Origin: a bacterium
GTDB taxonomy: Bacteria > Patescibacteriota > Minisyncoccia > Sungbacterales > GWA2-42-14
DNA length: 50,058 bases
Direction: 5' to 3'
Assembly: GCA_030649305.1 (NCBI GenBank)
Contig: JAUSFV010000010.1
Coordinates: 1 to 50,058 of the forward strand
The position numbers and the translations under genes were made by a program. Under the pieces are notes generated by a model. It searched no databases and was not told the origin of the DNA. It worked only from the letters and a program-made list of their open reading frames with translations. Below are positions 29,435 through 50,058 of the stretch, piece after piece. The first letter of the stretch is position 1; each line of letters starts with the position of its first letter.

Positions 29435-29438
29435 CGCC

Positions 29439-30722: not shown

Positions 30723-30738
30723 AAAGGTCGGTATAATT

Positions 30739-30828: not shown

Positions 30829-30834
30829 TAAAGA

Positions 30835-30990
30835 ATGGAACTCTACACGAAACATTGGGTTGCGAATGACGATGACGCGGGAGACGAAAAAGAAGACGAG
30901 GAAGAGCTTGCCGATGCCGAAGACGAGGAAGAAGAAAATGACGGATTAGAAGAAGAGGAAGAGGGTGCAGAAGAAAACAGCAATTATTAA
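30835..30990 (+). CDS. 51-aa hyperacidic peptide (absent from the ORF track)
   Basis: MELYTKHWVANDDDAGDEKEDEEELADAEDEEEENDGLEEEEEGAEENSNY, 26/51 D+E, followed directly by a terminator. Confidence 0.6.
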   Translation: MELYTKHWVANDDDAGDEKEDEEELADAEDEEEENDGLEEEEEGAEENSNY

Positions 30991-30997
30991 TACGAAT

Positions 30998-31036
30998 AAA
31001 AATCAACCCCGACAAAACGTCGGGGTTGATTTTTTT
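30998..31036. terminator. bidirectional intrinsic terminator
   Basis: AAAATCAACCCCGAC-AAAAC-GTCGGGGTTGATTTT. Confidence 0.8.
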
Positions 31037-31045
31037 ATACATGAA

Positions 31046-32218: not shown

Positions 32219-32343
32219 CCCGTTAGAAGTCTGCCGTTATATGGCCAACAACCAATTTCAGACAGACACGACAATAGATATAACCCCGCTTGTTTGATGT
32301 GGAAAAAATTACTAATTTTTTCCACCAAAGACTTCTAACGGGG
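32218..32343. mobile_element. MITE-like element, CCCCGTTAGA family, copy 3 (126 bp), in the tyrS start codon
   Basis: TIRs CCCCGTTAGAAGTCT / AGACTTCTAACGGGG. TTCA at 32214-32217 and 32344-32347. Extra internal hairpin TGGAAAAAATT-ACT-AATTTTTTCCA. Confidence 0.88.
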
Positions 32344-32402
32344 TTCATACTTCTTCATCATACGGCATTTCGGGTGAATTTGCAAAACATAGAAAATATG
32401 CT

Positions 32403-34901: not shown

Positions 34902-34935
34902 AAAACAGCCCCGACGTTACGTTGGGGCTGTTTTT
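34901..34935. terminator. bidirectional intrinsic terminator
   Basis: AAAAACAGCCCCGACG-TTA-CGTTGGGGCTGTTTTT. Confidence 0.8.
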
Positions 34936-34949
34936 GTGTTCTGTATATA

Positions 34950-36062: not shown

Positions 36063-36294
36063 ATATATATTTATATTATTTTATTATTATTATAGAGGAA
36101 TACTTTGGGGAAACGTAAAATAGGTATGTAGAAACGGAACAAAACACGCATTTAATTTTTTTATGTATGTGTGTGGTGCGGGGATATGTTTTGTAAGAAA
36201 TTTTTTTATTTACTTTCTTAACTCCCCCACCAATTATTATCACTAGTATATTCTCCTTTCTGTACATTCCCTCATACACATATATATGAACAGC
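36063..36294. other. candidate oriC segment (AT-rich dnaA-dnaN spacer)
   Basis: Very AT-rich DUE-like tract next to dnaN. Only degenerate DnaA-box-like 9-mers (e.g. TCATACACA). The + strand appears by eye to shift from A/C-rich to G/T-rich around here. Confidence 0.5.
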
Positions 36295-37677
36295 TTATGA
36301 AGTGAATATTCGTTCGCGTATGAGTTTTAACTCCTCCTCAAGGTCTTGGTTTACTTTTAATTCATTTTTTATTTTTTTATATGCGTGTATTGCTGTGGTG
36401 TGATCTTTTTTCCCGAGCTTTTCTCCGATAAAAGGAAACGAACACTTCAGATCGTCTCGCAGAACATACATGGTAATTTGGCGTGGTCGGACCATCTCTT
36501 TTTTTCTACTGCTGTTTACAAGGTCTTTTTCGCTTATTTCATAAAAATCAGAGATGGTTTTTATGACCTTTTTGGGGGTCGCAAATTTTTTCGGTGCGTA
36601 TATTAGTTGGTTTAATATTTTTTTTGTTTCGTCAACGGTTACGGGGGTATTTGCCATTTTTGACATGAGAACAATCTTATTAAGAACGCCCTCAAGCTCT
36701 CTGATATTATTTTTTATGTTTTGCGCGATGAGAAAAAGAACCTCGTCGTCTATATGAACCTGTTTTTCTTCCAATTTTTTCTTCAAGATAATAAGGCGTG
36801 TTTCAAAATCTGGCTCTCCAAGGTCAGCCATCATGCCGCCCTCAAATCGTGACCGCAGACGGGCCTCAAGCGTGGGAATTGCGGCAGGCGGCCGGTCGGA
36901 AGAAATGACTATTTGTTTATTGCGTTCATAGAGCGCGTTGAACGTATGAAAAAACTCCTCCTGCATTTTTTCGGTTTTACCAATAAATTGGATATCATCC
37001 ACAATAAGGAGGTCGAAATTTCGGTACCGTTCTTTGAGCTGCTGCATTTCCTGTGTTTTAAGGGCATCTACGATTTCCCCCATGTATTTTTCCGAAGAAA
37101 CATACCTAACTTTTGCGGAGGGCTGTTCTCCGATGAGTGCATTTCCGATTGCCTGTATAAGGTGTGTTTTCCCGAGACCAACGCCACCGTAGATAAAGAG
37201 GGGATTATAAACGCCTCCGGGTTTTTTTACGATGGATTGCGCCGCCGCATGCGCGAACTCGTTGAAAGAACCGACAACGAAATTTTGGAACGTATATCTT
37301 GGATTCAGATTTGTCGTAGGATTTACCAATGCTTCTTTCAGATCAAGTTGGTCAAGGTATTGAGGAAAGGCCTCAAACGTTCTCCGGGGCGCCGATTTTA
37401 TGGAGCGATCGTGGGCGGCGGATTGAGGCGCAACATCTCCTATCGCATACTCGATTTCTCGAATTTCGGGAGCCAAGCTCCGTACGGCTTTTACTACAAA
37501 TTTGTTGTATTTATTCTGGAGCCACTCTTTCGCAAAGCCGTTCGGAACGGACACAACCATTTTGCCGCCATCAAAAGAGGCAATGCGCGTGTCTTTAAAC
37601 CACGTGATAAAATTAGGCCGGCTCACGCTGAGTTCTATGTCCGCAAGCGCGGTTTTCCAAAGTTCGTGTAAATCCAT
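36295..37677 (-). CDS. dnaA: chromosomal replication initiator DnaA
   Basis: YTFQNFV, YNPLFIYGGVGLGKTHL, DDIQF, RELEG, KDHTTAIH. Start at ATG 37677. Confidence 0.97.
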   Translation of the reverse strand: MDLHELWKTALADIELSVSRPNFITWFKDTRIASFDGGKMVVSVPNGFAKEWLQNKYNKFVVKAVRSLAPEIREIEYAIGDVAPQSAAHDRSIKSAPRRTFEAFPQYLDQLDLKEALVNPTTNLNPRYTFQNFVVGSFNEFAHAAAQSIVKKPGGVYNPLFIYGGVGLGKTHLIQAIGNALIGEQPSAKVRYVSSEKYMGEIVDALKTQEMQQLKERYRNFDLLIVDDIQFIGKTEKMQEEFFHTFNALYERNKQIVISSDRPPAAIPTLEARLRSRFEGGMMADLGEPDFETRLIILKKKLEEKQVHIDDEVLFLIAQNIKNNIRELEGVLNKIVLMSKMANTPVTVDETKKILNQLIYAPKKFATPKKVIKTISDFYEISEKDLVNSSRKKEMVRPRQITMYVLRDDLKCSFPFIGEKLGKKDHTTAIHAYKKIKNELKVNQDLEEELKLIRERIFTS

Positions 37678-37717
37678 ATGATAAAAAATTTTTAAACTCT
37701 TCGGCCCGGGGCCGGCC

Positions 37718-37747
37718 CCAGCTCGAGGCGGACCAGCCCTTGGCTGG
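37718..37747. repeat. 30-bp double-hairpin REP-like unit upstream of dnaA
   Basis: CCAGCTCGAGGCGGACCAGCCCTTGGCTGG, related to the unit inside yidD. Confidence 0.6.
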
Positions 37748-37874
37748 CGCAAACCACCCCAGAGGAAATATTATGAGAACCTCTCTATTATGAATCAGGC
37801 GCGCAAGAACCACTAATCAAAAAAATAGAATAAGCTGTTTATAACATGTTGATATGCTTATGTTTGTTTTTCAG

Positions 37875-37981
37875 CCCCGTTAGAAGTTTAGAACTCCTCG
37901 TCTTAAGAACAATAAAGAGGCAGTTCGGTCGTATTGGATAGATTCTGGATACGTTTATCGTGCGTTTGACTTCTAACGGGG
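37875..37981. mobile_element. MITE-like element, CCCCGTTAGA family, copy 4 (107 bp), between dnaA and rpmH
   Basis: TIRs CCCCGTTAGAAGT / ACTTCTAACGGGG. Flanks TCAG / TCAA (imperfect duplication). Interior differs from copies 1-3. Confidence 0.8.
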
Positions 37982-38022
37982 TCAACTTCCCACTTTTTGT
38001 TTTGTATGGTAATCTAAAAGCT

Positions 38023-38157
38023 ATGTCTGTTACCTACCAACCCAAAAGGAGAAAACGCAGCCGTACGCACGGGTTTCGCGTGCGGTCAAAAACCCCAGGC
38101 GGACGAAATATTTTACGGAGGCGCCGCGCAAAAGGGAGGCGCCGCCTCACGGTTTAA
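38023..38157 (+). CDS. rpmH: 50S ribosomal protein L34
   Basis: [21 protein letters not shown]...[10 protein letters not shown]. Confidence 0.95.
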
Positions 38158-38158
38158 C

Positions 38159-38509
38159 GTGCCGTCCTCCTCCTCTCATCGTTTAAAAAAGAACGCTGAC
38201 TTTCTCCATGTTTTGCGCGGAAGAACAAAAAAGTTTGAAGGAATATTCGGCAGGATGGTTGTGGCGGGGGGCCGGTCTTCCGTGGCCCGGTTTGGTTTTG
38301 TGGTTTCAAAGAAGGCATCGCCCCGCAGTACCGAGCGTAATCTTCTGAAGCGTCGTGCCTCCGAGTGGGTGCGGAAACGGCTTCCCTCCATGCGGGCGGG
38401 TTTTGATGTTATTTTTATTTTTGAAAAGGGCGCCACTTCTCTTTCTCGCCGCATCCTGTATGAAGAACTGGAACGCGCGTGCAAGCGCGCGGGACTTTTT
38501 CAAAATTAA
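38159..38509 (+). CDS. rnpA: ribonuclease P protein component
   Basis: RLKKNADF, RFGFVVSKK, RNLLKR. Follows rpmH. Confidence 0.92.
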   Translation: MPSSSSHRLKKNADFLHVLRGRTKKFEGIFGRMVVAGGRSSVARFGFVVSKKASPRSTERNLLKRRASEWVRKRLPSMRAGFDVIFIFEKGATSLSRRILYEELERACKRAGLFQN

Positions 38510-38512
38510 ACT

Positions 38513-38812
38513 ATGCGAACAGCAAAAACTCTTTTTTTATTTTGCATCTTCGTATATCAGAAAACCGTATCACCCGATCACGGAATATTTTTTTCCGCTC
38601 GAGGCGGATCCGCCTTCGGCGGATATTCATTGCGCCGCTGTCGTTTCTCCCCTTCTTGTTCAGAGTATAGCAGCGAGGCACTCCGTCAATATGGACTTTT
38701 GAAAGGTAGCGTGTTGTCTTTGGCAAGAATTTTTCGTTGCGGCCCGTGGAGTCGCGGCGGGTACGACCCCGTGCGGCAAAATTCCAAATTTCAAGCACCA
38801 AATTACAAATAA
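38513..38812 (+). CDS. yidD: membrane protein insertion efficiency factor
   Basis: YQKTVSP, CRFSPSCSEY, RIFRCGPW, GGYDP. Confidence 0.9.
   Translation: MRTAKTLFLFCIFVYQKTVSPDHGIFFSARGGSAFGGYSLRRCRFSPSCSEYSSEALRQYGLLKGSVLSLARIFRCGPWSRGGYDPVRQNSKFQAPNYK
38594..38623. repeat. 30-bp double-hairpin in-frame insertion in yidD
   Basis: TCCGCTCGAGGCGGATCCGCCTTCGGCGGA, read as SARGGSAFGG. Confidence 0.75.
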
Positions 38813-38903
38813 ATCTCAAACAGAAAAATTCCAGCGTGTTTAGAATTTCGGTCATTTGAATTTAGAATTTGTTTGTGATTTGGAATTTGTGATTTAGGTT
38901 TTT
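38778..38903. repeat. AAAT(T/C)NC heptamer inverted-repeat element at the yidD/yidC junction
   Basis: AAATTCC AAATTTC AAGCACC AAATTAC AAAT facing TTTGTGA TTTGGAA TTTGTGA TTTAGG. Supplies the yidD C-terminus and stop. Confidence 0.8.
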
Positions 38904-38908
38904 CGTCC

Positions 38909-39658
38909 ATGAATCCTCTTTCTTTTGTCTATCATACTTTTTTTTATCAACCGTTATTTAACGGCCTTATTTTGTTATATTTGGCGCTTCCGTATCAGGA
39001 TCTGGGTCTTGCCATTGTCGTTTTTGTTATTTTGGTACGCCTAATTCTTCTGCCGATTTCCGTGCATGGTGTGCGCACGCAAAAACGATTAGCGGAACTC
39101 CAGCCGCACATAAAAGAACTTCAGGAAAAACACAAAGAAGACAAAGAAGCGCTTTCCCGGGGCTTGATGGAATTATATAAAACACACAAAGTAAACCCCT
39201 TTTCCGGATGCGCTCCCCTGATTCTACAGGGCTTTTTTCTTTTCGCGCTCTATCGGATATTTTTTAATGGGTTCGGCCAAGATTCTCTTTCGGCGCTTTA
39301 TTCTTTTATCCAACAGCCCGGATTTATTAATCCGGTAAGCTTCGGGTTTTTGGATGTGTCGCAGTCAAATAAGATTCTTGCGATCCTCGCGGGCGTGTCG
39401 CAGTATGTGCAGGCGCTCGTCATGCCGCAACCTCCGGCGGGGGCGTCACGCGGAGGCCCGGATTTTCAAAAAATCCTTTCGTCCCAAATGAAATATTTTT
39501 TCCCGTTCCTCATCGCCACCATCTCTTGGTCGCTCCCGGCGGCCCTTCCCTTGTACTGGACGGTTTTAAACGTTTTTGGTATAGTACAGCAGATAGTTTT
39601 GGATAAAACACAAACAGACGCGAACAGTAATAAACACAAACAGACGCGAACCGATTAG
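38909..39658 (+). CDS. yidC: membrane protein insertase YidC (short form)
   Basis: GLAIV, RLILLP, LQP.IK.LQ, VNPFSGC, PAALPLYW. Confidence 0.93.
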   Translation: MNPLSFVYHTFFYQPLFNGLILLYLALPYQDLGLAIVVFVILVRLILLPISVHGVRTQKRLAELQPHIKELQEKHKEDKEALSRGLMELYKTHKVNPFSGCAPLILQGFFLFALYRIFFNGFGQDSLSALYSFIQQPGFINPVSFGFLDVSQSNKILAILAGVSQYVQALVMPQPPAGASRGGPDFQKILSSQMKYFFPFLIATISWSLPAALPLYWTVLNVFGIVQQIVLDKTQTDANSNKHKQTRTD

Positions 39659-39700
39659 CTGTTGGCGCCCGTTCGCTTCGCTGTTCGTGTCTGTTCGCGT
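39606..39700. repeat. ACAGACGCGAAC 10-mer inverted-repeat element at the yidC/jag junction
   Basis: AAACACAAACAGACGCGAAC twice, facing CTGTTCGTGTCTGTTCGCGT. Supplies the yidC tail. Confidence 0.8.
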
Positions 39701-39705
39701 ACATC

Positions 39706-40161
39706 ATGGAATCAATTAAAGAAAAATTAAACGAGTTTTTCGCGAAACTCGGCATTGAGGTTCAATATGAAATAACGCCCGCAAGCGGTACCGAGGTGCC
39801 CCAAGTTCGTGTTGCCACGGTGTATCCGGAAGACGCGAGGCTTCTTATTGGTGAGGGTGGACAGAATCTTGCGGCACTGGAACATCTCATACGCCGGCTG
39901 CTCTATAAAGATACGGTTGCTCCGCCGCCCGTGTTTGTCGACGTAAATGGATATCGCGCGCATCAGATTGAAGCATTGAAAGATGAGGTGCGCGATTGCG
40001 CAAAACGCGTGCGGCTCTATCGAAAAGAAATTCGCCTTCGGCCCATGTCTTCGTTTGAACGCCGGGTGGTACATATGGCACTTGCAGAATACCCGGACCT
40101 TACAACAGAAAGTATTGGGCAAGACCCTGCCCGTATGGTGGTGATTAAGCCGTATCCCTAA
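39706..40161 (+). CDS. jag: Jag/KhpB-like RNA-binding protein (KH + R3H)
   Basis: LIGEGGQNLAALEHL, DVNGYR, ERRVVH (R3H). Follows yidC. Confidence 0.88.
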   Translation: MESIKEKLNEFFAKLGIEVQYEITPASGTEVPQVRVATVYPEDARLLIGEGGQNLAALEHLIRRLLYKDTVAPPPVFVDVNGYRAHQIEALKDEVRDCAKRVRLYRKEIRLRPMSSFERRVVHMALAEYPDLTTESIGQDPARMVVIKPYP

Positions 40162-40223
40162 ACCAAATTTATTTCATAAATTTGGTCGGGCGACCAATCT
40201 CGCCGCGCGAGATTGGTTTAGCC
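40156..40223. repeat. two-hairpin structured element, copy B
   Basis: CCCTAAACCA-hairpin-TGGTCGGGCGA-hairpin-TTTAGCC. Contains the jag stop codon. Confidence 0.75.
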
Positions 40224-40258
40224 AAAACACAAAATGAAAATTGAAAAATTTCGGTAAT

Positions 40259-40286
40259 ACAAAAGCCGCCCAAGGGCGGCTTTTGT
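40259..40286. terminator. bidirectional intrinsic terminator
   Basis: ACAAAAGCCGCCC-AA-GGGCGGCTTTTGT. Confidence 0.8.
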
Positions 40287-40288
40287 GT

Positions 40289-41500
40289 TTATTTTAATTT
40301 CAGCCTCCAGAGCGTTAAATCGTTTTTATCCTGGAAGAAAAGATATTGTTCGTCAGGCGAGAGAAAAAGATTAATTGCATCAATCTGAGTTTTATCCGAA
40401 ATCCCTTCAGCGACGAGCGTATCCGGGGGAATTCGCACGAATTGGTCTTGAAGCGCCATATCTCCGCGGAGCCACGCATCGGGAAGATCGGCGTCATTTT
40501 GTGGGATGGCACAAAGAATGGTTTTTGCGTCTTTTGTGAAGACGCATTTTTCCGCAAGCGTTGGGGGCGTGATTGTTTTCGGAATTTCTCCCTTTTGGTT
40601 TGTGAGCGCGAGGGCAATGCGCCCGTCTTCTCCCACAAATGAGGTAAGGAGAGCAGCGCCGTCGGGGCTTGCAATTGTCATATTTCCCCGGATAGTACCG
40701 AATATTTTTTCAAGCGCTTTCGTTCCCGTATCAAACAAATACACAATGCCGGGCGACTGGTTTGAGGGCGCGGATTGCAGAAGAATTTTTTTTGGCGCGA
40801 TCCACAGAAGCGAAAAATCAGGAATCGGTGTTTCAAAGACCACGCGTGGAGTTTTTCCGTCTTCCGTCGCGGTAATGAGTTGCGTCGCGTCACCTTTTGG
40901 CAGGAGATACGCAAGCGAACGCGAGTCGGGAGAAAAATCAAACGAACGGATGTCCTTGGGGAGAAATACAACGCCAGTGGTTGCGGTTGTGTTGATAAAT
41001 CGTTTTACTGTTGTGCCTTCTTGATATGAAACAACACTGCGACGTTTTGCGTCTTGCCACACGACGTCAAACATTCCGACAATGGTAAGGGGCGAGACCT
41101 GTTCCGCGGCTCCTCCGGAAAAATCAATCATTTCTAATTTCCCTCCGCTTCGCACATAGTAAATTATTTTTCCGCCATCCGCGGTAAGGGTTGCGCCAAG
41201 GATTGGTTTTTTTACAATTTGCAGAAGTTCGGTCTCCACGGCTTCCTCGCCGTCGATTTCTCCGTCGGTTTCGCCACCGGTTCCTCCCTCTTCCTCAATG
41301 CCCCCAGGCGGTATTGTTGTATCTCCACCTCCTCCGCCTCCCCCTCCCGACTCACCGATTTGGGGCAGGATGCCGAAAAGATTTTTTACCGTTTTTGTTT
41401 TGTCGGGACGATTGATATACCACAGTATGCCGAGCGCGATTAAAATTACGGCGGCGGTGCCCCCGATGACAAGAATTAAAGTTTTTCGGTTTATAGTCAT
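40289..41500 (-). CDS. membrane-anchored beta-propeller-like (TolB-like) surface protein
   Basis: N-terminal TM, Gly/Glu linker, repeated SPD blade motifs. Confidence 0.7.
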   Translation of the reverse strand: MTINRKTLILVIGGTAAVILIALGILWYINRPDKTKTVKNLFGILPQIGESGGGGGGGGDTTIPPGGIEEEGGTGGETDGEIDGEEAVETELLQIVKKPILGATLTADGGKIIYYVRSGGKLEMIDFSGGAAEQVSPLTIVGMFDVVWQDAKRRSVVSYQEGTTVKRFINTTATTGVVFLPKDIRSFDFSPDSRSLAYLLPKGDATQLITATEDGKTPRVVFETPIPDFSLLWIAPKKILLQSAPSNQSPGIVYLFDTGTKALEKIFGTIRGNMTIASPDGAALLTSFVGEDGRIALALTNQKGEIPKTITPPTLAEKCVFTKDAKTILCAIPQNDADLPDAWLRGDMALQDQFVRIPPDTLVAEGISDKTQIDAINLFLSPDEQYLFFQDKNDLTLWRLKLK

Positions 41501-41512
41501 TAGTTTTACAAA

Positions 41513-41974
41513 CTATTGCTGTATTTTATTTAAATTCTTAGTAACGATACTTTGGAGATCAAACCCACCCACCAAATCCGTATTAATCGTGGAAAGAATA
41601 AGATAGCCGAACCCCGCGACAAGAATTCCCGCAATGCCGTTCCAAATTGCCTGTTTCGCGGTTCCGACGCGCGAAGGATTTCCCGCTGAAATAATATACA
41701 GCACCCCGCCATATACAATAGAACCCATTGCCGCAACCCCAACAAGGCCGAGGAGGAAATTATAGAGATTGCTCAAATAATCGCCGGGTTCCGTGGGGGT
41801 CGCATTTTCGGCTCCTGACCCAGAGGCCGCTCCTCCGGCGTTGCCGACGGTAACGCATACCTCATTAGGATTTCCGGTCTCACACGTGGTTTGTGCTTTC
41901 ACAAAAAACGGGCTTACTGCAATAAGTAAGACGAATGAAAGCAAGAATGATGATATAAAAGTAAAGCGAGCCAT
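41513..41974 (-). CDS. CPR pilin (VirB2/TrbC-like)
   Basis: Signal peptide, then YNFLLGLVG..A...IVYGGVLYIISAGNP..V..AK..IWN..G two-TM pilin pattern. Confidence 0.75.
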   Translation of the reverse strand: MARFTFISSFLLSFVLLIAVSPFFVKAQTTCETGNPNEVCVTVGNAGGAASGSGAENATPTEPGDYLSNLYNFLLGLVGVAAMGSIVYGGVLYIISAGNPSRVGTAKQAIWNGIAGILVAGFGYLILSTINTDLVGGFDLQSIVTKNLNKIQQ

Positions 41975-41989
41975 GTTATGATGCGAGTT

Positions 41990-43342
41990 TTACCTAAATT
42001 CTATATCGACTGACCGTTGTGTTTTTTGGATATCATCTTTTTTATTTTCCACCAAGACTGAAATTGTGTGGCGTCGTAGTGTATCAGCCGCGGACCGGAT
42101 CGTAAGGATGCGCGGCCGCTCGGCAGTACTTGGGATGGCATCGCCGTTAAGGTTCCAACGGAACGAAAGATCGGCTACGTTGCGAAGTGGAAAAAAGAAG
42201 GGTTCGGCGATAAGATCGATTGTTTCCCCGCCGCGCGCGGCTCTTAGGGTAAGCGCACGGATAAAATCGACTCCCTCAAGTGGTTTTAATTCATACACCC
42301 GCACAAATGGTTCAAGGGATGGAATCTCAATATTTTTTTCTTTGTCAATGGAGCCGCTTGTATTTTGTACGCGCACTGCTATGGTTTCGCGCACTCCCAA
42401 GAATTGCGGGGTAAAACGAAAAACATTTTTTCCGACACCCGATTGCGCGCCGATGTAATTATCATTGAAGCGCCATGTATACAAAAGCGTTCGCGGATTC
42501 ACGCCGGGAAGATTGGGGAGAGCCGTAATGTGCACATCGCTTCCGATTGAAGGAAGGGCTTTCCCGCGATACCACGAGGGCGTTGTGGAATCAGCCCACC
42601 AATAAAGCGGCATATCAAAAGAGCGCACCGCGGTTGTTTTGGAGAGTGCCGTGCCCGTCGGCGGCGTTACCGTAACGCTGATGGAATAATTCGTTCCGGT
42701 TTTACCCGCGGTGAATGTGTGTGATTTCGCGCCAATCCCCTGCGTATCGCGCGGGGCAACGCCGTTCACAACCCAGCGAAACGACGAGCGGTCAAGGTCA
42801 ATGTCGGATGAGCGTACGCTCACGGTTATAACCTCTCCCGGGTCGGGATTATTGGAGGGAAGTGCTAAAAGTTCAATGGAGCGCGTTTCAATCCCGGGGA
42901 TGCCGCCGCCCGGCGTTGTTCCTGGCGCGCCACCCGCACCCGGCACGCCCCCTTCGGGAAGCGTCACAACGGAGAGTGGAAGTGTTTGTTGGGCATCGGC
43001 AAATTCTCCGCCCGGTTTTACCACAAGCCGCATTGTGATAGTGGTAAGCCCCAGGGTTTCAGAGGCGCTTGCGGTAAGGGAGTAGGTGCCCTTTCCTACC
43101 CCTGAGTTTGCCGAATCCAGAACGCCATTTTTATACCACTCAAACACGGCCGTTGAGGCATCAAAATTTATTGGTGTAACATTGATAAAAACGGTGTCCC
43201 CGCGGAAAATCACGGGCGGATCAACGTCAATGGTATAGACGGGCTGGGTAAGCGCGTATACGTTTCCGAAAAAAAGCAAAGAGCCCGCGAAGACGCTTCC
43301 GGAAAGAAGGAAGATAAGAAAGAGTTTTTCCCGTTTACCCAT
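41990..43342 (-). CDS. secreted protein with tandem Ig-like/PKD-like domains
   Basis: Signal peptide and repeated W..NG....G.GK beta-sandwich units. ATG 43342 follows the extended -10 TGGTATAAT. Confidence 0.7.
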   Translation of the reverse strand: MGKREKLFLIFLLSGSVFAGSLLFFGNVYALTQPVYTIDVDPPVIFRGDTVFINVTPINFDASTAVFEWYKNGVLDSANSGVGKGTYSLTASASETLGLTTITMRLVVKPGGEFADAQQTLPLSVVTLPEGGVPGAGGAPGTTPGGGIPGIETRSIELLALPSNNPDPGEVITVSVRSSDIDLDRSSFRWVVNGVAPRDTQGIGAKSHTFTAGKTGTNYSISVTVTPPTGTALSKTTAVRSFDMPLYWWADSTTPSWYRGKALPSIGSDVHITALPNLPGVNPRTLLYTWRFNDNYIGAQSGVGKNVFRFTPQFLGVRETIAVRVQNTSGSIDKEKNIEIPSLEPFVRVYELKPLEGVDFIRALTLRAARGGETIDLIAEPFFFPLRNVADLSFRWNLNGDAIPSTAERPRILTIRSAADTLRRHTISVLVENKKDDIQKTQRSVDIEFR

Positions 43343-43387
43343 TTTCTTTATTATACCACGTTGTGCTTCGTATTTCATGTCGTATAG

Positions 43388-43879
43388 TTAGCTATTTGCT
43401 TTATAAATAGCCCATACCAGCCACGGAAGTGTCAGGACGCCGGTGCTTGGGATAATGCCGAGAATAAGCGGGAGAAAGAACGCGGCGGATTTTCCGGCAA
43501 CCGGTATTTGTTCAATTGCGGCCGACGCTTTTTCTCCGGGGTCTAGGGCCGCCGCCGCTTTTTTTCCCGCAAACGGCAGTTTAGAGGACAGCCCGAGTGT
43601 TGGCGGTTTTAATCCCGACACAGTCCACCAAAGAAATATAAATCCGACCCCGATACCGTTTAAGATAAATCCGATACCCGGAATTGCGCTTAATACTCCG
43701 AAAAATAACGCGACCATTCCCATTAAAAATCCTGTTCCCCAATCCATTTTTTTTTCGCGTTGGAGCGTCGGCGCCTCCGGTTCATCGGGTTCTTCCTCCG
43801 CTTCTTCCCCGGCGTCTTGATTTTGCGCCTCCGCAAGACGCGCAGCGTTTTCATATTCGTTTGTTGCGGTATCTGCCAT
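43388..43879 (-). CDS. hypothetical membrane protein
   Basis: Acidic N-terminus and three to four hydrophobic segments. Lies in the VirB4 operon. Confidence 0.65.
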   Translation of the reverse strand: MADTATNEYENAARLAEAQNQDAGEEAEEEPDEPEAPTLQREKKMDWGTGFLMGMVALFFGVLSAIPGIGFILNGIGVGFIFLWWTVSGLKPPTLGLSSKLPFAGKKAAAALDPGEKASAAIEQIPVAGKSAAFFLPLILGIIPSTGVLTLPWLVWAIYKANS

Positions 43880-43886
43880 ATTTTTT

Positions 43887-43960
43887 AATTCATGAATGAC
43901 GAATTAGGAATTGGGGACCTTGGCTGTTCCTGGTTCATAATTCTTACTTCCTGATTCCTG
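43887..43960. repeat. CAGGAAT/ATTCCTA heptamer hairpin forming the virB4 3' end
   Basis: Minus strand CAGGAAT CAGGAAG TAAGAAT TATGAAC CAGGAAC ... CCAATT CCTAATT CGTCATT CATG. Confidence 0.7.
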
Positions 43961-45784
43961 TGTAGCGTGTTGTTCCGAAAACTCCTCCTTTGCCTTCTTA
44001 ATTAATAAAAGCTGGGCCGGGTCTGACGTGATGATTTGGTCTTCGGTGTATGACGCAATGATTTTTATGGCAACGTGTTTCAGCCCCGCGAAAAACATTC
44101 CTTCTCCTACCTCGGACTCAAGCAATAAAAACTTTTCTTCCTCCGTAAGGTTGAATGTTTCCACCAGTTTTTGGATGGTTGCGGGCGACTGTTTGAGTAA
44201 AAGCTGAATGGATGAGTTTGTCACAATCGGTTTGCCGTAAGGCGATTCCATAAAGTCGGCCACATCCTGTGTTATGGTTGTGAGTCCTAAGTAATATTTG
44301 CGCGCGCGCTTGGCGATGCTGTATAAAAACGATGCGCCATCCTCCCGCCGCATCAGCCACCACGCCTCATCCACGACAAGAAGCCGCTTTTTCAATTCGG
44401 CGCGGACGGTGTTCCAGATAAAATGAAGCACGATATACATTGCAACATCGCGCAGCTCCTCCTCCATGTCGCGAACCGAAAATACAATGAGGCGGTTTCG
44501 CACATCCACGTTTGTGTGCTGGTTAATGAATCCCGCCCAGGTACCCTCGGTATATTTTTTGAGGCGTGTCGCGAGCGACTCTCCCCCCTCGGTGTTTGCG
44601 AGAACAAGGGCTAAGTCAGACAAAAGCGGCGGGGTTGTTTTGGAAAAATCGGTTTCGGGAGTAATGTCGCGTGAGGCGTAGGTCTCGGTAATGGCGCGGT
44701 CAAGCACGGAGTCTTCTTCCGGCGAAAGCCCGCCGAGCATTATCCGGAAGAGGCCAATGATGCTGATAATGTTTGAGCGAAGCACATCTGCGGGCGACTC
44801 GTCATCCCGCGGGGGCGGCAAATCAAAGGGGTTGATGTGGTGCTGCGAGGTAAGCGAGATATTGAAGTAGGACCCGCCAACGGTTTCGGCAAGAAATTGG
44901 TATTCGCGCTCGGGGTCAATAATAAGTACATCCACCCCAAACATGAGCGAGCGAAGAACCTCAAGTTTTGTCGCGTATGATTTCCCGGCGCCCGACGTCG
45001 CGAAGGTAATTGAGTTTGCGTTTGGGAGTGAGAAGCGGTCAAACAAAATGAGGGAATTATTGTGCCGGTTGATGCCGTACAGGATTCCCTTATTTGAGGT
45101 GAGGTCAAAAGAAACAAAAGGAAAGGTGCTTGAGATGGCAGCCGAATTTAAATAGGTGTGTATCAGAAGCTGGTCGTTATTGATGGGGAGCGTTGAATTA
45201 AATCCCTCTTCCTGTTGAAAGAGCGCCGGTTTCGCGTACACAAGCTTTGATTCAAGTATGGTTCGGATCTGGCCTTCGGTTTTGTTCAGCTCTTCCTCCG
45301 CGTCAGCATACATCGTTATGTAGAGGCCGAAGTTAAACAATCGTTCTTGTGCTTGTTGGAGTTTGTCGCGGAGATCCTCAAGGTCGCGGTAGGCGGTATC
45401 CAAAATCGGGTCGCGCACCAACCCTTTTTCTTCGCGGTCAACAATTTGTGATTGCACCCGCGCCACTTGCTTGCGGAGGTCTTTCAAAATGGTTGAGGTG
45501 TCAATCGGATGCACGAAGAGCGAAATATCAAAGACGCGGTCCATATTAATAATGGGCGAGAACCAGTTGGTGTGTAGATACCGCGGGTAGGAGAAAACAA
45601 AAATCGTTCGGCTGAATTTCTCACCCAGGCGCAGAAAACTCGGGTTTACTTCCAGGGCGGAGGGCGAGACGATGTCTTTGAGGGTCAGTTCGCCCTGTTC
45701 AAAAATTTCCTGCGGAAAAACAGCAAGAACTTCCTGTTCCGTTTTTTTGCTTTCTTTGGGTTTTAGTAAATCGAGGATTGCCAT
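43904..45784 (-). CDS. VirB4-like type IV secretion ATPase
   Basis: LYGIN, Walker A ATSGAGKS, IIDPEREY, INPFD, Walker B VVDEAW, RARKY, TQ. Confidence 0.92.
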   Translation of the reverse strand: MAILDLLKPKESKKTEQEVLAVFPQEIFEQGELTLKDIVSPSALEVNPSFLRLGEKFSRTIFVFSYPRYLHTNWFSPIINMDRVFDISLFVHPIDTSTILKDLRKQVARVQSQIVDREEKGLVRDPILDTAYRDLEDLRDKLQQAQERLFNFGLYITMYADAEEELNKTEGQIRTILESKLVYAKPALFQQEEGFNSTLPINNDQLLIHTYLNSAAISSTFPFVSFDLTSNKGILYGINRHNNSLILFDRFSLPNANSITFATSGAGKSYATKLEVLRSLMFGVDVLIIDPEREYQFLAETVGGSYFNISLTSQHHINPFDLPPPRDDESPADVLRSNIISIIGLFRIMLGGLSPEEDSVLDRAITETYASRDITPETDFSKTTPPLLSDLALVLANTEGGESLATRLKKYTEGTWAGFINQHTNVDVRNRLIVFSVRDMEEELRDVAMYIVLHFIWNTVRAELKKRLLVVDEAWWLMRREDGASFLYSIAKRARKYYLGLTTITQDVADFMESPYGKPIVTNSSIQLLLKQSPATIQKLVETFNLTEEEKFLLLESEVGEGMFFAGLKHVAIKIIASYTEDQIITSDPAQLLLIKKAKEEFSEQHATQESGSKNYEPGTAKVPNS

Positions 45785-45795
45785 GCCAATGTTGT

Positions 45796-45892
45796 CCCTG
45801 TTAGATAACGAGGAGCTTGGTGCTTATAACTAAAACAATATTTTTCTTGATATCACAGTAAATCACGAATTTTAAATTTTTATCTAACGGGG
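45796..45892. mobile_element. MITE-like element, CCCCGTTAGA family, copy 5 (97 bp)
   Basis: CCCTGTTAGATAA / TTATCTAACGGGG. No clear target duplication. Confidence 0.7.
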
Positions 45893-45906
45893 CTACAACA
45901 TTGAGC

Positions 45907-46035
45907 ACCGCGCACATAAAATGGTATTGCGTGTACGCCCAATAAAGGCGCGGGGGCGATTCATGACTCATTGCGAAATGATTACAAATCTTTCTTACGA
46001 ACCACGCAGGCGTCATACCATTTTATGTGCGCGGT
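45907..46035. mobile_element. 129-bp element with perfect 21-bp TIRs
   Basis: ACCGCGCACATAAAATGGTAT / ATACCATTTTATGTGCGCGGT. Homologous to 28562-28693. Confidence 0.8.
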
Positions 46036-46093
46036 AAAGGTTTGACAGCTACAATTTTTTCGTCTGATGACTCAAAATTGCAGGTCAAGCCCC

Positions 46094-46747
46094 TTACTTT
46101 TCCCTCGCCGCCTGCTCCGTCGGGTTATATAATCCGTAAAAAAGTTCTATCAGCTCCTCGGTGTTAAGGGGGGCGGTTCGGACGCCGATACGCACCAAAC
46201 CGAGCGATACTTCATCCACCCGCTGAAAAAGCTGGGCTTTAAATTCGGCAAACTGGTCCTGCTCGTTTGTTTTTTTCTGGGATGCTGAGGGGGGCTTGAG
46301 AAACGACGTAAGCGACCCCATGAGGCCTTTCCGGGTTATAACCGACGGGTTAAAAGGAACAATGACATAAAATGTTTTTGCGACGATATTGGAAAGCTCC
46401 ACGAAGCTTTTTACGAAATCAACATATTCTTCTATTTGGATTTTAAGGAGTTCGTTTGGTTCTTCTTTTACGCGGTCTTTGAGCGTATCAAGATAGGGAA
46501 CGATATTAAGTTTTCGCGAATGGGTTACGAATTGGATTGAAAAATCAAGCGAGTTTAAAAAATTCTGGTATTGAAACGTAATCGCGTCCTGCTCATCTTC
46601 CGATTTAAGCGCGAAGTTGAGAGAGGACGCCATAAGGACAGCGCGAATTCCGCTGTCTTTCATGACAACGACGCCGTCCCGGATTGAATCAATATTGATG
46701 AAATCCTGCGCGGATTTTGCTTGTGCAGATTTTTTTGATTCGGCCAT
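46094..46747 (-). CDS. conserved T4SS-locus protein preceding VirB4 (VirB4 N-terminal-like)
   Basis: SAQDFI..IRDGVV, SLNFALKSEDEQ, FLNSLDF, FYVIVPF, L.TEELIELFY..YNP. Start at ATG 46747. Confidence 0.75.
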   Translation of the reverse strand: MAESKKSAQAKSAQDFINIDSIRDGVVVMKDSGIRAVLMASSLNFALKSEDEQDAITFQYQNFLNSLDFSIQFVTHSRKLNIVPYLDTLKDRVKEEPNELLKIQIEEYVDFVKSFVELSNIVAKTFYVIVPFNPSVITRKGLMGSLTSFLKPPSASQKKTNEQDQFAEFKAQLFQRVDEVSLGLVRIGVRTAPLNTEELIELFYGLYNPTEQAAREK

Positions 46748-46752
46748 AATAT

Positions 46753-47192
46753 AACCAACAACCAACAACTTACAACTAACCACACGACGATTGCTCTATT
46801 TTTGTAATTTTTTTTTAAAACCACCCAACTGATTTGAGATGCTATCGCATTTCAGATATACCTCTCTAAATTCTGTGTCGGTGGCAAGGTTATTTCCGTT
46901 TAAAACATCAGCGCCTGCCAACGTTTCATTTACGGAACCGAGCGCGATTTCTATAAACCGGTTGAGTTCTTTATCTGATGTCTTTCCACTTCCCTCTGCG
47001 ATGTTGAGAATAACAGAGAAAGCCGATCTGATGATTTGGCTTCCCAATTCATATCGATATTCTCTTGGTAGTTTTTTGACGATTTTTAGGATAAGCGCAA
47101 GGAGCCCCTTTGCTTCTTGGTATACCCGCCATTTTAGGAATCTGAATTTATCCACGTTTTTGTTGTTAGTTGTTGGTGGTAAGTTGTTAGTT
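46753..47192 (-). mobile_element. four-helix-bundle cassette bounded by inverted heptamer arms
   Basis: Arms (AACYWAC)n at 46753-46789 and (GTTRGTT)n at 47156-47192 enclose a single gene. Confidence 0.75.
46796..47155 (-). CDS. four helix bundle protein (TIGR02436 / 23S rRNA IVP family)
   Basis: F..W.VYQ, LPREYRYELGSQIIRSAFSV.LNIAEGSG, RFIEIALGSVNE. Confidence 0.9.
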   Translation of the reverse strand: MDKFRFLKWRVYQEAKGLLALILKIVKKLPREYRYELGSQIIRSAFSVILNIAEGSGKTSDKELNRFIEIALGSVNETLAGADVLNGNNLATDTEFREVYLKCDSISNQLGGFKKKLQK

Positions 47193-47200
47193 AGGAAAAA

Positions 47201-47608
47201 TTACCTCTGTAATTTTTCCTTTATATCCAAGCTCCACGCCAAGTCATTTAATTTGCTTTCCGTCAGCTTGGTAAGCCCGACGGGCGCCGTTGCTTTTTTT
47301 GCCGCTTCCCCCGTTATAAGTTCGGGGCGCTTTTTTTTCCATATGTAGAGCCGCGGCCGTACAAAGTAATGGAAGCCGTTCAGGATGACTTTTGCGAGCG
47401 GTTGTTCATTGACTTTCAAATAGGCGAGCGATACGGAAAGGGAGGCAATCGGAATGGAGAAAATAATAAATGCAACCATCTCAAATACATTCCAAAAAAT
47501 CACCACGATGCCAAGCCCCGCGATGAGATAAATAAATTGCCGGAGCGTAAACGGCCCGAAAATCTTGTCTTCTACGGTAATAAATTGAGGAACTTGATAC
47601 TGTCTCAC
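47201..47608 (-). CDS. PrgI family protein (VirB3-like)
   Basis: YQVPQFITVEDKIFGPFTLRQF, two TM helices, KVNEQP, PRLYIWKK. GTG start at 47608. Confidence 0.85.
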   Translation of the reverse strand: MRQYQVPQFITVEDKIFGPFTLRQFIYLIAGLGIVVIFWNVFEMVAFIIFSIPIASLSVSLAYLKVNEQPLAKVILNGFHYFVRPRLYIWKKKRPELITGEAAKKATAPVGLTKLTESKLNDLAWSLDIKEKLQR

Positions 47609-47611
47609 GGT

Positions 47612-47702
47612 AACTGACAACCAACCACCCACAACTTATAACAGGCGACGTTTTGACTTGGTGTGTTATTAGTTGTTTGTTGTTGGTTGTACGTTGTTGG
47701 TT
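47612..47702 (-). mobile_element. second gene-less heptamer cassette
   Basis: AACTGAC AACCAAC CACCCAC AACTTAT facing (GTTRKTT)n. Spans the upstream stop to the prgI GTG. Confidence 0.7.
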
Positions 47703-48729
47703 ATTCTATCGGCTCTCTATACGGGTCGGTAGCGTATTTTTGTGTAGGTGTTGTCGGTTGTTTTGGCGATGTTATTGGTTGTTGGTTATTGGTTGTTTGT
47801 TTTTCTTGCGGTGGTTGAGGCGCTTGCGCCGGTGTTATTAGTTGTTGGTTATTAGTTATTGGTTGCCCCTTCTCTAATTCCGGCGTTTGAGTCAGTTTTT
47901 CAACTTCTTTCATGAATGGCAAGCTCGGCGGAGGTGCGGCTTTTGGCGTTTCCGGTTTTGGTTGCGGCGTCGTGGGTTGTTCGCGTCTGTTCGTATCTGC
48001 CGTTCGCGTCTGTTCGTGACCTCCGATGGGCCTAATCTCTTTCAAAACTTCGGAGTCGCGGGAAGACGGCATCGGCTGCGGCGCCTCCCGTGTCTTCGGC
48101 GGCTCCGGCGGCTCCGCTTTTTTTAATTCCGCCTCCGCCGCTTTTGTCGTTTGCGGCTGGTTATTGGTTATTAGTTGTTGGTTATTAGTTTTTGCGGGCG
48201 GTATCACCGATTTTGTCTCCGTTACCTGTTTTGTGCGGTCAAAACCATCCGGCCGGATTTCCCACGGCGACTTCGGCGTCGTTGTTGTTGGTTGTTTATT
48301 GTCAATTGTCGGTTGTGCCCGCGGTGTTGTTGGTTGTCGGTCGTAATTTGTTGGTTGTTGCATCGCCCGTTCATCCCAGCCCCCCCCATGTGCCTCTTTC
48401 AACCGCTCGCGTATCGCAAGAAAAATTTTAGTGTTTACTTCGCGCGCGATCTCGCTTGCTTTTGCATTATCAACATCCAACGTATCTTTGAGGTTGTATG
48501 TAAAATCAGCAATCGGTAGAAGTCCGATAATGCTATATCCGATAACGTCCGCAAGGTATCCGGTCTTTTCGATATTCAGTCCGAATTTTTTTCCGATTTC
48601 ATATACGGCACTCGCGGTATCAATTGAAATAAGCGCCTCTTTGATGTCGGGGTGCAGTTGCTCGTAGCGGCGCATCACTTCATTTTTGAGATCAGCGCCA
48701 TATTCTTTTGTGATATTTTGATTCGGCAT
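47701..48729 (-). CDS. hypothetical protein with helical N-domain, repeat-derived Q/P/T/N linker and DPYREPIE C-terminus
   Basis: N-terminal domain YEQLHPDIKEAL...IF..IRE.LK; low-complexity linker; ends DPYREPIE. Confidence 0.75.
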   Translation of the reverse strand: MPNQNITKEYGADLKNEVMRRYEQLHPDIKEALISIDTASAVYEIGKKFGLNIEKTGYLADVIGYSIIGLLPIADFTYNLKDTLDVDNAKASEIAREVNTKIFLAIRERLKEAHGGGWDERAMQQPTNYDRQPTTPRAQPTIDNKQPTTTTPKSPWEIRPDGFDRTKQVTETKSVIPPAKTNNQQLITNNQPQTTKAAEAELKKAEPPEPPKTREAPQPMPSSRDSEVLKEIRPIGGHEQTRTADTNRREQPTTPQPKPETPKAAPPPSLPFMKEVEKLTQTPELEKGQPITNNQQLITPAQAPQPPQEKQTTNNQQPITSPKQPTTPTQKYATDPYREPIE

Positions 48730-48730
48730 A

Positions 48731-50058
48731 TTATTTGTTTTGTTCGTGTTCTTTAAGCGCTTCTGTAATTATTTTTGCAATATCCTTTTTTCCGATTTGT
48801 CCTCCCCCCCCTCTTTTTTCGCTGAGCAATTTTTGTTGTGACATCAAGCGGAGGCCGGGTGATGTATTGAGAAGCTTTTGCATATCTCGAGTTAAATATT
48901 TGTCAGCAGTTTGTTGTTCGATGGCGCTCACCCTCATTTTTCCTTGGTCGGTATTTGGGTCCCAATTATGCGGGGTTTCTCTTCGAGACGCTTCAATGAT
49001 TCTACTTGATTCTTCTTCTATCTTTTGTTGTATATCCGCGAACGCGGTGCCGAGCGCTTCTGCGTGTTGTCGCGATTGTTTTCCGATATTCACGATGTCT
49101 GCCTCCGAGGCGTTCTTGATATATGCTTCAGCAAATTGTGATTTCAAAAATTCTGGAGCGATATTTCCTATTTTATCGCCGCTATAATTTTCTTTCGCAT
49201 AGTTCGCCACCTGCTGTTTGTATGTTTCCGAACTAAGCTCTTTTTTGGCGTTTGGATTTTTAATATTATACTGCACCTCGGGATTATTGGATGCCTCATG
49301 CACAATGTGTTCTGCTCTCACGCTTCGCAGTTTATCGGCAAGGGCGCCCTGCATCTCTGCGGGAAGTTTATTGATAACGTCTTGTCGGTCGCCCGCATCC
49401 ATCTTCTCAAGCAGGGTGCGCGCGTTTTGGGGCCGCTCATTCATGAGGTATTTCGCCTTTGCTTCATCTGACAGCCGCTGGTAGAAACCGAATTTTTCTT
49501 TATTCCGTTCCTTTTCTGCTTTTTCTCCAACCGCAGTTACGCGGCCAAGCCCGCGCGCGATGCCGCCGCCAAACGGGATTCTATTAAGAACATTTTGAAC
49601 GCCCTCGCTTCCAAGCATGTCTTTTGTTCTCGCTCCGACCCATTGTCGTCCGTAACGCGCTCCCCTTCCAACCGTCTGCCGTTTTGCGTAATTCGTAAGC
49701 CCCCTCCCCCATCCCGTTACGGTACTCGCGCCATAAATTCCCATTTTCTGCGCAACCATGAGCGAGCCAATGAGAAGCCCCGTGACCATAAAGAACTGTA
49801 CGCCCAAACCGATGGTATTATAGAGTTCAAATTGGGTTTTTGTCTTTGTAAGCGAGACGCTGAGGAGTTCTGATGAGGTGCGTAGGGAAAGCATGAGCAT
49901 AAACATAAATGCGGGCGCAAAAAACGACCATTGTGTCAATTTGTTCCACCAATCGTTCCAGTGGCTTTGCGTTGCGGGGAGTATCATAAAAAGAAACGCA
50001 AGCGGGCCGAACACCAAAAGCATCGCGAGCGAAATTATTCTGATAAGGAAGAAAAGTC
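48731..50058 (-). CDS. VirB6/TrbL-like polytopic membrane protein (5' partial)
   Basis: L.L.FGPLAFL..ILP.T..HW..WW..L....FFAP..MF pattern. The frame is open to the window edge. Confidence 0.7.
   Translation of the reverse strand, partial: LFFLIRIISLAMLLVFGPLAFLFMILPATQSHWNDWWNKLTQWSFFAPAFMFMLMLSLRTSSELLSVSLTKTKTQFELYNTIGLGVQFFMVTGLLIGSLMVAQKMGIYGASTVTGWGRGLTNYAKRQTVGRGARYGRQWVGARTKDMLGSEGVQNVLNRIPFGGGIARGLGRVTAVGEKAEKERNKEKFGFYQRLSDEAKAKYLMNERPQNARTLLEKMDAGDRQDVINKLPAEMQGALADKLRSVRAEHIVHEASNNPEVQYNIKNPNAKKELSSETYKQQVANYAKENYSGDKIGNIAPEFLKSQFAEAYIKNASEADIVNIGKQSRQHAEALGTAFADIQQKIEEESSRIIEASRRETPHNWDPNTDQGKMRVSAIEQQTADKYLTRDMQKLLNTSPGLRLMSQQKLLSEKRGGGGQIGKKDIAKIITEALKEHEQNK

Follow-up and report, generated by a model that had tools for sequence, protein, structure and literature searches.

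Hairpin blocks in the window

The window analysed here, a stretch of 50,058 nt, is contig C31 of genome G000 (1,022,540 bases, 54 contigs, 46.7% G+C), and the sequencing runs holding its DNA are labelled groundwater metagenome. It contains three intergenic blocks, copies A, B and C, which we regard, on balance and with moderate confidence, as mosaics of abutting hairpin modules built and reshuffled from dispersed repeats. Copy A lies between a response regulator gene and a holA-like gene, copy B between a small open reading frame (ORF) and a gene with a bPH_2 domain, and copy C between a 229-aa ORF without a name and a gene for a TraG-like P-loop ATPase. An initial annotation had described them as one structured carrier with a site-specific acceptor slot, laid out from stop to start codon with hairpins and constant joints, and this layout was recovered on the sense strand of all three. 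The order is a stop codon, a first hairpin (H1) ending AAACCTTTA, a slot, a further hairpin (H3) opened by TGCTCAAT, and an ATG. The segment in the slot, referred to as the cargo, begins with CC(CC) and finishes with (GG)GG, and H3 ends in ..TTGGC or GTGGC before the ATG of the next gene. The blocks were also said to fill the whole stop-to-start interval; this holds for copies A and C, but in copy B H1 starts ahead of the stop codon, which lies inside its 5' arm (Table 1).

Each copy was predicted to fold as three abutting hairpins with no free linker. The Z-scores against dinucleotide shuffles were -7.1 for A (200 shuffles), -6.6 for B (200) and -8.1 for C (100), and no shuffle equalled any native fold. 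The identity of the first hairpin between A and C, earlier counted as 52 of 61, was recounted as 53 of 62 from TAA to CCTTTA, in agreement to within one base, and all nine differences are indeed transitions. Both compensatory pairs claimed for this hairpin were found on the predicted fold as changes from G-C to A-T at 12/52 and 18/44; of the other differences, one leads to a G.T pair and four fall at unpaired positions. The contents of the slot, a palindrome in A and elements with terminal inverted repeats (TIRs) in B and C, also agree with the earlier description. The cargos of B and C have the TIR core CAC[AT][CT]AAAATGGTAT in common and lie in opposite orientations. As noted before, the loop of H3 differs in all three copies; in copy C, the inner part of H3 is replaced.

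Table 1 Coordinates of the three blocks and their modules in the window
Feature	Position	Strand	Description
Copy A	16928-17075	-	H1 + 38-nt cargo + H3
Copy A, H1	17014-17075	-	62-nt hairpin starting on TAA (17073-17075) of the response-regulator gene, ending AAACCTTTA
Copy A, cargo	16976-17013	-	38-nt P1 palindrome CCCCATGAGAT..ATCTCACGGGG (40 nt with flanking A/T)
Copy A, H3 variant a	16928-16975	-	48 nt, TGCTCAAT..AAAATTGGC + ATG (16928-16930) of the holA-like gene
Copy B	28505-28758	+	H1 + 130-nt cargo + H3
Copy B, H1 type 2	28505-28562	+	starts GGGCTTTGTC; TAA of the upstream ORF (28515-28517) in its 5' arm
Copy B, cargo	28563-28692	+	130-nt T2 TIR element without ORF, orientation 1
Copy B, H3 variant d	28693-28758	+	66 nt; ends on ATG (28756-28758) of the bPH_2-domain gene
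Copy C	45782-46096	-	H1 + 127-nt cargo + H3 with nested element
Copy C, H1 type 1	46035-46096	-	53/62 bases same as copy A; 9/9 differences transitions
Copy C, cargo	45908-46034	-	127-nt T2 TIR element, orientation 2 (inverted relative to B)
Copy C, H3	45782-45907	-	126 nt; basal helix TGCTCAATGTTGT/ACAACATTGGCA; ends on ATG (45782-45784) of the TraG-like P-loop gene
Copy C, fourth layer	45796-45892	-	97-nt element with P1-like TIRs CCCCGTTAGAT..ATCTAACAGGG, replacing the inner part of H3

Copy number and spread of the blocks

Further copies had been predicted, and at least 26 H3 blocks occur in this genome; 136 distinct H3 copies were collected overall. A strict pattern (GGGTGCTCAAT-N(20-120)-TKGCATG) gave 19 matches in the 1.02-Mb genome, against none for the reversed pattern used as control, and the recurrence of H3 is not a matter of chance. 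Of the 61 related genomes that formed the comparison set, 16 contained the strict pattern, and they belong to three families of the order. In the genome itself, 21 copies were recovered by a regular expression for the H3 start, all ending on an ATG; 20 of the ORFs they open are of at least 67 aa and the other runs off its contig. Looser rules yielded 27 rows, including one false row (C5:3073) and one cut by a contig end, and further variants were recognised by eye at C33:36617, C42:35023 and C40:7780. The genes downstream of H3 are mostly core genes, such as those for L13, L3, L6, S13, S4, L17, L10, L20, S18, S19, L33, NusG, GlmS, GalU and SSB, and several blocks lie inside ribosomal-protein operons. 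FtsZ and MreB are also among the core genes with H1 or H3 at their stop or start codons, and genes bearing these hairpins often have no Shine-Dalgarno sequence.

In a scan with one genome per species (596 Gb), at least 123 stretches matched the H3 pattern, for a chance estimate of about 33, and most of the 81 matches examined were clearly real. The record titles of real matches name Candidatus Sung-, Lipton-, Wolfe-, Colwell-, Harrison-, Giovannoni-, Portnoy-, Yanofsky-, Jorgensen-, Uhr- and Campbellbacteria, as well as Paceibacterota, Minisyncoccia and the like; four matches in records titled otherwise (L117, L123, L179 and L183) look like chance matches. The genes for SSB, S19, L6, L16, GlmS and NusG bear H3 in distant lineages too. 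H1 and H3 are dispersed, strand-specific hairpins that recur across Parcubacteria.

H3 is just one among several reused leaders in a ribosomal-protein operon of the same genome (G000:C11:1-10900, minus strand). Nearly all gene junctions there are 60-100 nt long without a Shine-Dalgarno sequence, and they end in a few repeated leaders (..TTCGTGAAAATTTTGTGTATTG.., ..AGAATTCGTATATTAGCATCGAGAC-ATG, ..AAATCATAAATCGAAAAT-ATG and ..CAAGCTAATTCCTACAAGCTT..).

GIY-YIG elements in the slot

The initial annotation had also predicted gene-carrying versions of the cargo. From all H3 copies collected, 128 cargos were extracted, of which 11 are of at least 250 nt; eight of these contain an intact GIY-YIG ORF of 78-86 aa, two a degenerate one, and one is a chance match. 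All eight intact ORFs are in sense orientation, two in this genome and six elsewhere. The cargos with an intact gene are 274-299 nt long; cargo lengths overall form five clusters (37-41, 49-56, 96-112, 127-132 and 271-299 nt). They span at least four terminal-repeat families, each with short gene-less versions in other slots, and the GIY-YIG gene is the sole ORF inside the terminal repeats.

Two gene-carrying elements of this genome link the gene to short cargos. At G000:C47:7663-7949, the P1 repeats CCCCATGAGAT..ATCTCACGGGG, which also make up the cargo of copy A, stand in the slot between AAACCTTTA and TGCTCAAT and enclose an 83-aa ORF that consists of the GIY-YIG catalytic domain alone (PF01541, E 6e-15, residues 1-69). 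A 295-nt element on contig C37 carries a second GIY-YIG ORF in the same slot, and its T3 terminal repeat CCCCCTCACTCGAAA.. is common to six short copies. The cargo of copy A is a gene-less relative of the C47 element, and all three cargos of the window are short versions of such mobile GIY-YIG elements without the gene. The cargos of B and C belong to the T2 family. This genome contains five T2 copies, of which three share one slot orientation and two have the opposite one, and T2 is absent from 60 relatives; a gene-carrying T2 element was not found in the 61 genomes. P1 is present as exact reverse complements in different slots.

The nearest solved structures to the encoded protein are the UPF0213 proteins 1zg2 (E 2e-5) and 1ywl, and its matches in NCBIfam were all sub-threshold. 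The protein fits no recognised transposase class. Genes of this type were found in 50 of the 61 related genomes, with up to 13 per genome, and CCC..GGG inverted repeats enclose the gene, in an element of about 276-324 nt, at 21 of the 30 loci inspected.

P1-type palindromes were also seen in other constant surroundings. At G000:C23:7989, C43:6258, C4:8455 and C28:65822 they stand in the context GCTC(G/T)CA-P1-C(G/A)GGTAGGCC, which may be another kind of host repeat. At G000:C33:17459, C33:18444, C45:3468 and C11:10232, P1 palindromes, some of them doubly nested, follow GTCCGATTGG-N-CAAACAA(T)AA ahead of genes for ribosomal proteins (L10, L3), and this motif is possibly a leader RNA that takes up inserts in the same manner.

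Insertion outside the blocks

The cargo families also insert at unrelated sites with target duplications, so that they are not specific to the slot. On contig C16, a GIY-YIG element lies inside a small YdeI-like ORF and the sequence reads ..GCGGATTTA/CCCCCACACC..GGTGTGGGGG/TTTACGAAGGG.., with a left flank ending GGATTTA. Uninterrupted orthologues are present in the relatives L109 and L110, the latter reading ..GGGGATTTACGAAAAG.., and a clean insertion with a 4-bp target duplication (TTTA) was thereby verified. Eight more apparent duplications were observed: TATG at four loci on start codons, TGAG at three on ATGA stop-start overlaps, and TGGA at one. On contig C41, an element occupies the stop-start overlap of hrcA and grpE, a junction at which it is absent in all 13 relatives compared. 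The nuclease ORF shares its frame with the left copy of the duplicated ATG, and the TGA of the nuclease overlaps the restored ATG of grpE; the element thereby inserts itself into translational coupling.

In two related genomes from two families (L015 and L016), one 276-nt GIY-YIG element splits a small zinc-ribbon-like ORF at the same place (..EECGF.YxE...KCL / TWC(K/R)EH(Q/K)SC..), and the TGA of the nuclease stands directly before the downstream half.

Another enzyme could in principle have spread the blocks. The genome has three PF01797 matches above cut-off (on contigs C4, C23 and C37), no DDE_Tnp_1 or TnpB-type match and a single rve match, and the blocks resemble bacterial interspersed mosaic elements (BIMEs) in being mosaics of extragenic palindromes. 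The three Y1 transposases, similar to the transposases associated with repetitive extragenic palindromes (RAYTs), might thus have spread the blocks in the manner of such REP/BIME arrays, with the GIY-YIG genes as passengers. We consider this improbable. The Y1 genes are flanked by palindromes of their own (CTATAGAGGCTAAACCTCTATAG, TTGAAGTCCGACTTCAA and TGTCAAGACGAAATCTCGACA), and none of these is similar to H1, to H3 or to the repeats of the cargo; the terminal repeats of the cargo enclose no ORF other than the GIY-YIG gene; and Y1 enzymes of the HUH class are not known to leave a 4-bp target duplication such as the verified one. The Y1_Tnp frames of 232-291 aa, at G000:C4:1498-2196 (with CTATAGAGGCTAAACCTCTATAG), G000:C23:376-1251 (with TGTCAAGACGAAATCTCGACA) and G000:C37:4215-4469 (minus strand, with TTGAAGTCCGACTTCAA), and their palindromes are a separate hairpin-repeat system in the same small genome.

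Presence, absence and reshuffling of the modules

The carrier is not a fixed resident of its junctions. Neither H1 nor H3 was present at the TraG-like junction of copy C in any of 19 relatives, and at the holA junction of copy A the block was absent in 13 of 15 and present in two. Contig C47 (9839 bases) is syntenic with the window over 45285-50058 with 84-91% identical DNA; it represents a paralogous region or else a co-assembled strain. Copy C precedes the TraG-like gene in the window, and in C47 that place is taken by about 160 nt of unrelated spacer. At the next gene upstream, C47 has a block with a GIY-YIG gene followed by an ATG start, whereas the window (47602-47702, minus strand) lacks a block and shows a hairpin of 96 nt that is unrelated to it, CCAACAACGTACAACC..GGTGGTTGGTTG, followed by GTG as start codon. 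The whole spacer from stop to start codon was swapped here and not merely interrupted. No joint of excision or insertion at copy B was found in the DNA contigs of three runs over 27500-47400. One run contig has 45772-46110 replaced by 174 other letters and is probably the C47-type variant; in connection with C47, a contig of the same depth (38) was also seen in run X1.

The modules mix freely within the genome, with 21 different combinations of H1, cargo and H3 in the 27 rows. T2 in orientation 1 goes with H3 variant d in all three cases and T2 in orientation 2 with variant e in both, and copy B is 95% identical to a block on contig C44 over 220 nt spanning cargo and H3. The tie between T2 orientation and H3 variant suggests that cargo and H3 were copied as a unit, and from these observations together we think it likely that cargo and H3 are copied jointly, at times along with the rest of the block, and recombine through conserved ends.

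The joints of the slot

The initial annotation proposed an acceptor. A resident carrier of H1 and H3 would then be recognised at its junction by sequence or structure, for example through GIY-YIG homing among paralogous carriers, and would have received successive insertions. At least five cargo families (P1, T2, T3, CCCGCC.. and CCCAGCACC..) stand at the same two bonds, A/CCC and GGG/TGCTCAAT; cargo is found in both orientations, and the young T2 family is joined to H1 type 1, to H1 type 2 or to no H1. The left flank of the slot is CCTTTA in 54 cases and ACCTTA in 11. A complete inverted repeat ending exactly at TGCTCAAT precedes 124 of the 136 H3 copies, so that these count as occupied, though most copies had been collected with patterns requiring GGG before TGCTCAAT.

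An empty slot, which the initial annotation had also expected, was not found, a loose pattern joining the end of H1 to the start of H3 giving one match against one for the reversed control in 61 genomes. When H3 copies not preceded by G were sought, seven matches were obtained, of which six look real and five have a hairpin neighbour ending ..GGGA or ..GGA; there was no clean empty carrier among the seven. The sole direct junction of H1 and H3, in L077, also lacks CTTTA; it is ambiguous and may be a deletion. Several relatives (L008, L044, L066 and others) have the right half-repeat before H3 without the left half. Start codons, stop-start overlaps and the inside of an ORF also serve the same cargo families as insertion sites, and the 4 bp duplicated there are of unrelated sequence. 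No duplication was seen at the slot, and the linkage of T2 orientation to the H3 variant also speaks against independent insertions into a resident carrier. A multi-copy block with different inserts at one position was therefore confirmed, but its site-specific acceptor was not; such a site is possible but was not demonstrated, and we consider it fairly unlikely.

Conservation and possible role of H1 and H3

Covariation had been predicted and was found in both outer hairpins. For H3, 55 sequences from many lineages were aligned, the first eight and last nine columns being fixed by the search pattern and hence uninformative; 96.6% of cells in the 24 predicted pairs are paired. Thirteen pairs changed on both sides, against 8.2 +/- 1.2 in shuffles, and none of 500 shuffles reached 13; slid controls were far lower. 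In the variant TGCTGAAT..ATTCGC-ATG before holA in two relatives, a double change retains the basal pair. In the 58 aligned copies of H1, the ends are conserved (TAAAGGGCTT.. and ..AAACCTTTA) and the inner helices covary strongly. The sense strand of H1 has a conserved purine internal loop, RA opposite GAA (A in 57 of 58 and G in 56 of 58), and the start of H1 is the stop codon in 38 of the 58. H1 lies on or just past the stop codon, and H3 terminates exactly at the next start codon. These strand-specific features suggest a function at the level of the transcript, as does the constant orientation of the hairpins with respect to the genes.

A conserved cis-acting intercistronic RNA that is not mobile, with a middle helix tolerating any sequence and length, would account for this orientation, for the exact abutment on stop and start codons, for the covariation of H1 and H3, and for the same housekeeping genes bearing H3 in distant lineages. 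It leaves unexplained the protein gene within the middle helix in eight cases, the cargo families that stand alone elsewhere, including the insertion with a verified target duplication, and the absence of the block at the same junction in close relatives. No Rfam family matched at the gathering score in the whole window, only chance-level hairpin matches appearing at E up to 10. We regard a purely cis-acting RNA as very improbable.

In a consensus scan of A and B, no sense-strand terminator or sigma-70-like promoter was detected; promoter-like matches reached 9 of 12 positions only, lay inside the cargo or antisense, and numbered 23 against 15.6 +/- 3.3 expected, which is chance density. A pair of intrinsic terminator and sigma-70 promoter was rejected for these two copies, with neither a GC hairpin with U-tract nor -35/-10 hexamers on the sense strand. 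A promoter inside H3 was rejected as well (no consistent hexamers, by eye and by consensus scan), as was a split ribosome-binding site in which H3 brings the G-rich cargo end near the AUG (no consistent spacing, by eye). The anatomy fits neither integron attC sites nor CRISPR-like arrays.

Two further observations concern H3 and its surroundings. In the apical region (alignment A1, columns 37-48), many variants retain CATTGAGC or CATTGGGC in the loop, a sequence that can pair with the 5' strand GCTCAATG and nearly repeats the 3' strand CATTGGCA; the start codon could thus be freed by an alternative pairing. At G000:C51:2500-2541 and G000:C3:25890-25931, a promoter-like motif, TTGTGCCAGACA-N-TATATAAA(A/G)TGGC-ATG, precedes the gene for L31 and one other gene and has the TGGC-ATG context in common with H3; only a few bases separate its -10 box from the ATG, a spacing that suggests transcripts without a leader.

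Proposed origin of the blocks

In the mosaic that we favour, the middle module would be a very compact mobile element, in its full form about 275-325 bp long, with inverted repeats CCC..GGG and a single-domain GIY-YIG nuclease of 78-86 aa as its sole gene. Most cargo copies would have lost the gene and retained the terminal repeats, as forms of 37-150 nt that are collapsed or similar to miniature inverted-repeat transposable elements (MITEs). The nested appearance follows from cargo elements lying both between the hairpins and inside hairpin loops. By analogy with the Ssn nucleases, which act on single-stranded DNA (PMC11893778), the nuclease may cut at or near its own hairpin and so drive copying. 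In mRNA, H1 and H3 would serve as the 3'-end and 5'-end hairpins of neighbouring cistrons, so that whatever stands between them would be harmless and co-transcribed. The constant joints would then have arisen from joint copying of cargo and H3 and from recombination via conserved ends, and not from recognition of an empty acceptor.

A bolder version can be put forward only tentatively, being in our judgement less probable than not. The GIY-YIG protein would be the sole enzyme of a new class of hairpin-ended transposons of about 0.3 kb, and H1 and H3 a Parcubacteria-wide 'punctuation' cassette of mRNA that the elements exploit and spread. Such a cassette would begin with a hairpin for the 3' end, followed by a gap that can be discarded and by a hairpin for the 5' end, set directly against a start codon without a Shine-Dalgarno sequence.

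Several points weigh against the favoured reading. No target duplication is visible at the slot between H1 and H3, and cargo may therefore reach it by a route different from the verified insertion. In the nested cases the inner host hairpin is missing, not split, which simple insertion does not explain. The 83-aa protein, as a catalytic domain alone, could be a passenger, and the count of 124 complete repeats before 136 H3 copies is biased by the collecting patterns. The roles of H1 and H3 in mRNA are purely inferred. In 52 of 66 H3 copies, the antisense strand gives a slightly better fold than the sense strand; the sense strand of H1 is the more stable in 38 of 67, which is uninformative. G.U pairs are rare, a test of their strand asymmetry gave no support for an RNA-level hairpin, and one-sided changes in H3 amount to about nine cells against 140 two-sided; hairpins acting at the DNA level fit this at least as well as RNA.

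Relation to known systems

The closest published system is that of Ssn and its repeat. Ssn proteins are described as GIY-YIG nucleases with a single domain and a length of about 94 aa, which cleave single-stranded DNA beside a hairpin repeat, and this repeat (SRM/NTS) flanks the ssn gene and occurs in hundreds of copies; the authors state that the gene architecture resembles an insertion sequence, with mobility as a hypothesis only (Chenal et al. 2025, PMC11893778). The elements described here likewise encode a single-domain GIY-YIG protein below 100 aa (78-86 aa, with no other domain), and repeats that can form hairpins and have many copies in the genome stand on both sides of the gene. The arrangement is an altered one, since a single long inverted repeat encloses the gene with its two arms, in place of two complete hairpins. 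The slot-borne gene is in addition placed between H1 and H3. The SRM motif HGTCWY..RNCYNB had four genome matches, against zero to four in five Markov simulations, and none within 500 nt of the five GIY-YIG genes or in copies A, B and C. Target duplications, gene-less derivatives and nesting were seen here, and the lineage is Parcubacteria, whereas Ssn is mainly found in Pseudomonadati.

Among hairpin-repeat mosaics, REP/BIME arrays with RAYT transposases are cited in the Discussion of the same report (PMC11893778). The likeness lies in extragenic palindromes arranged in stereotyped intergenic mosaics with hairpin-dependent enzymes suspected; the difference is that the Y1 genes here are flanked by other palindromes, the blocks run from stop to start codon, and one module has a GIY-YIG gene. 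The pneumococcal BOX element (boxA-boxB-boxC) and the enterobacterial ERIC element are modular, transcribed intergenic repeats with variable middle modules and insertions at constant internal positions. The blocks are like them in modular build, transcribed intergenic site, variable middle and fixed internal insertions; BOX and ERIC are not known to carry a gene themselves or to be linked to a start codon, and the likeness meant here is one of build. With MITEs, the cargo has in common the TIRs of gene-carrying and gene-less copies, target duplication and nesting, but its sole ORF is an 83-aa GIY-YIG protein and not a DDE, HUH, serine or tyrosine transposase. No insertion sequence family is known to use GIY-YIG.

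'Mobile' promoters are near-identical upstream sequences that are reported to stand before unrelated genes and to be shared between taxa (PMC3575422). The blocks differ from them in that the consensus scan detected no sigma-70-like promoter on the H3 sense strand in A or B, and in that many copies lie inside ribosomal-protein operons. In the literature searched, a limited collection, no description of these Parcubacteria elements was found. Hairpin-repeat mosaics and GIY-YIG genes tied to hairpins are known kinds that are combined here; two features stand out, direct signs of movement of such GIY-YIG units and the conserved hairpin pair on stop and start codons of core genes across Parcubacteria.

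Relatives of the Ssn architecture show a verified duplication, gene-less derivatives, nesting, and presence or absence between near-identical contigs, which together make mobility directly testable. The Parcubacteria lineages that bear H1 and H3 are organisms without cultures, and if the hairpins act in mRNA, they would have a bearing on operon expression in reduced genomes. The blocks also explain contig breaks and strain variation, and genome annotation should mask or model them.

Other observations in the window

Two further places in the window stood out in the run contigs. Over 38124-38900, the contig depth is 1088 in run X1, against about 45 elsewhere in that run (364 in X3), and loose ends are numerous at 38623; many organisms or repeats share this segment. 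At 32214-32348, just before an 832-aa ORF, contigs of all three runs have alternative joints that skip 72-96 bases with different letters between, and this is a hypervariable spot.

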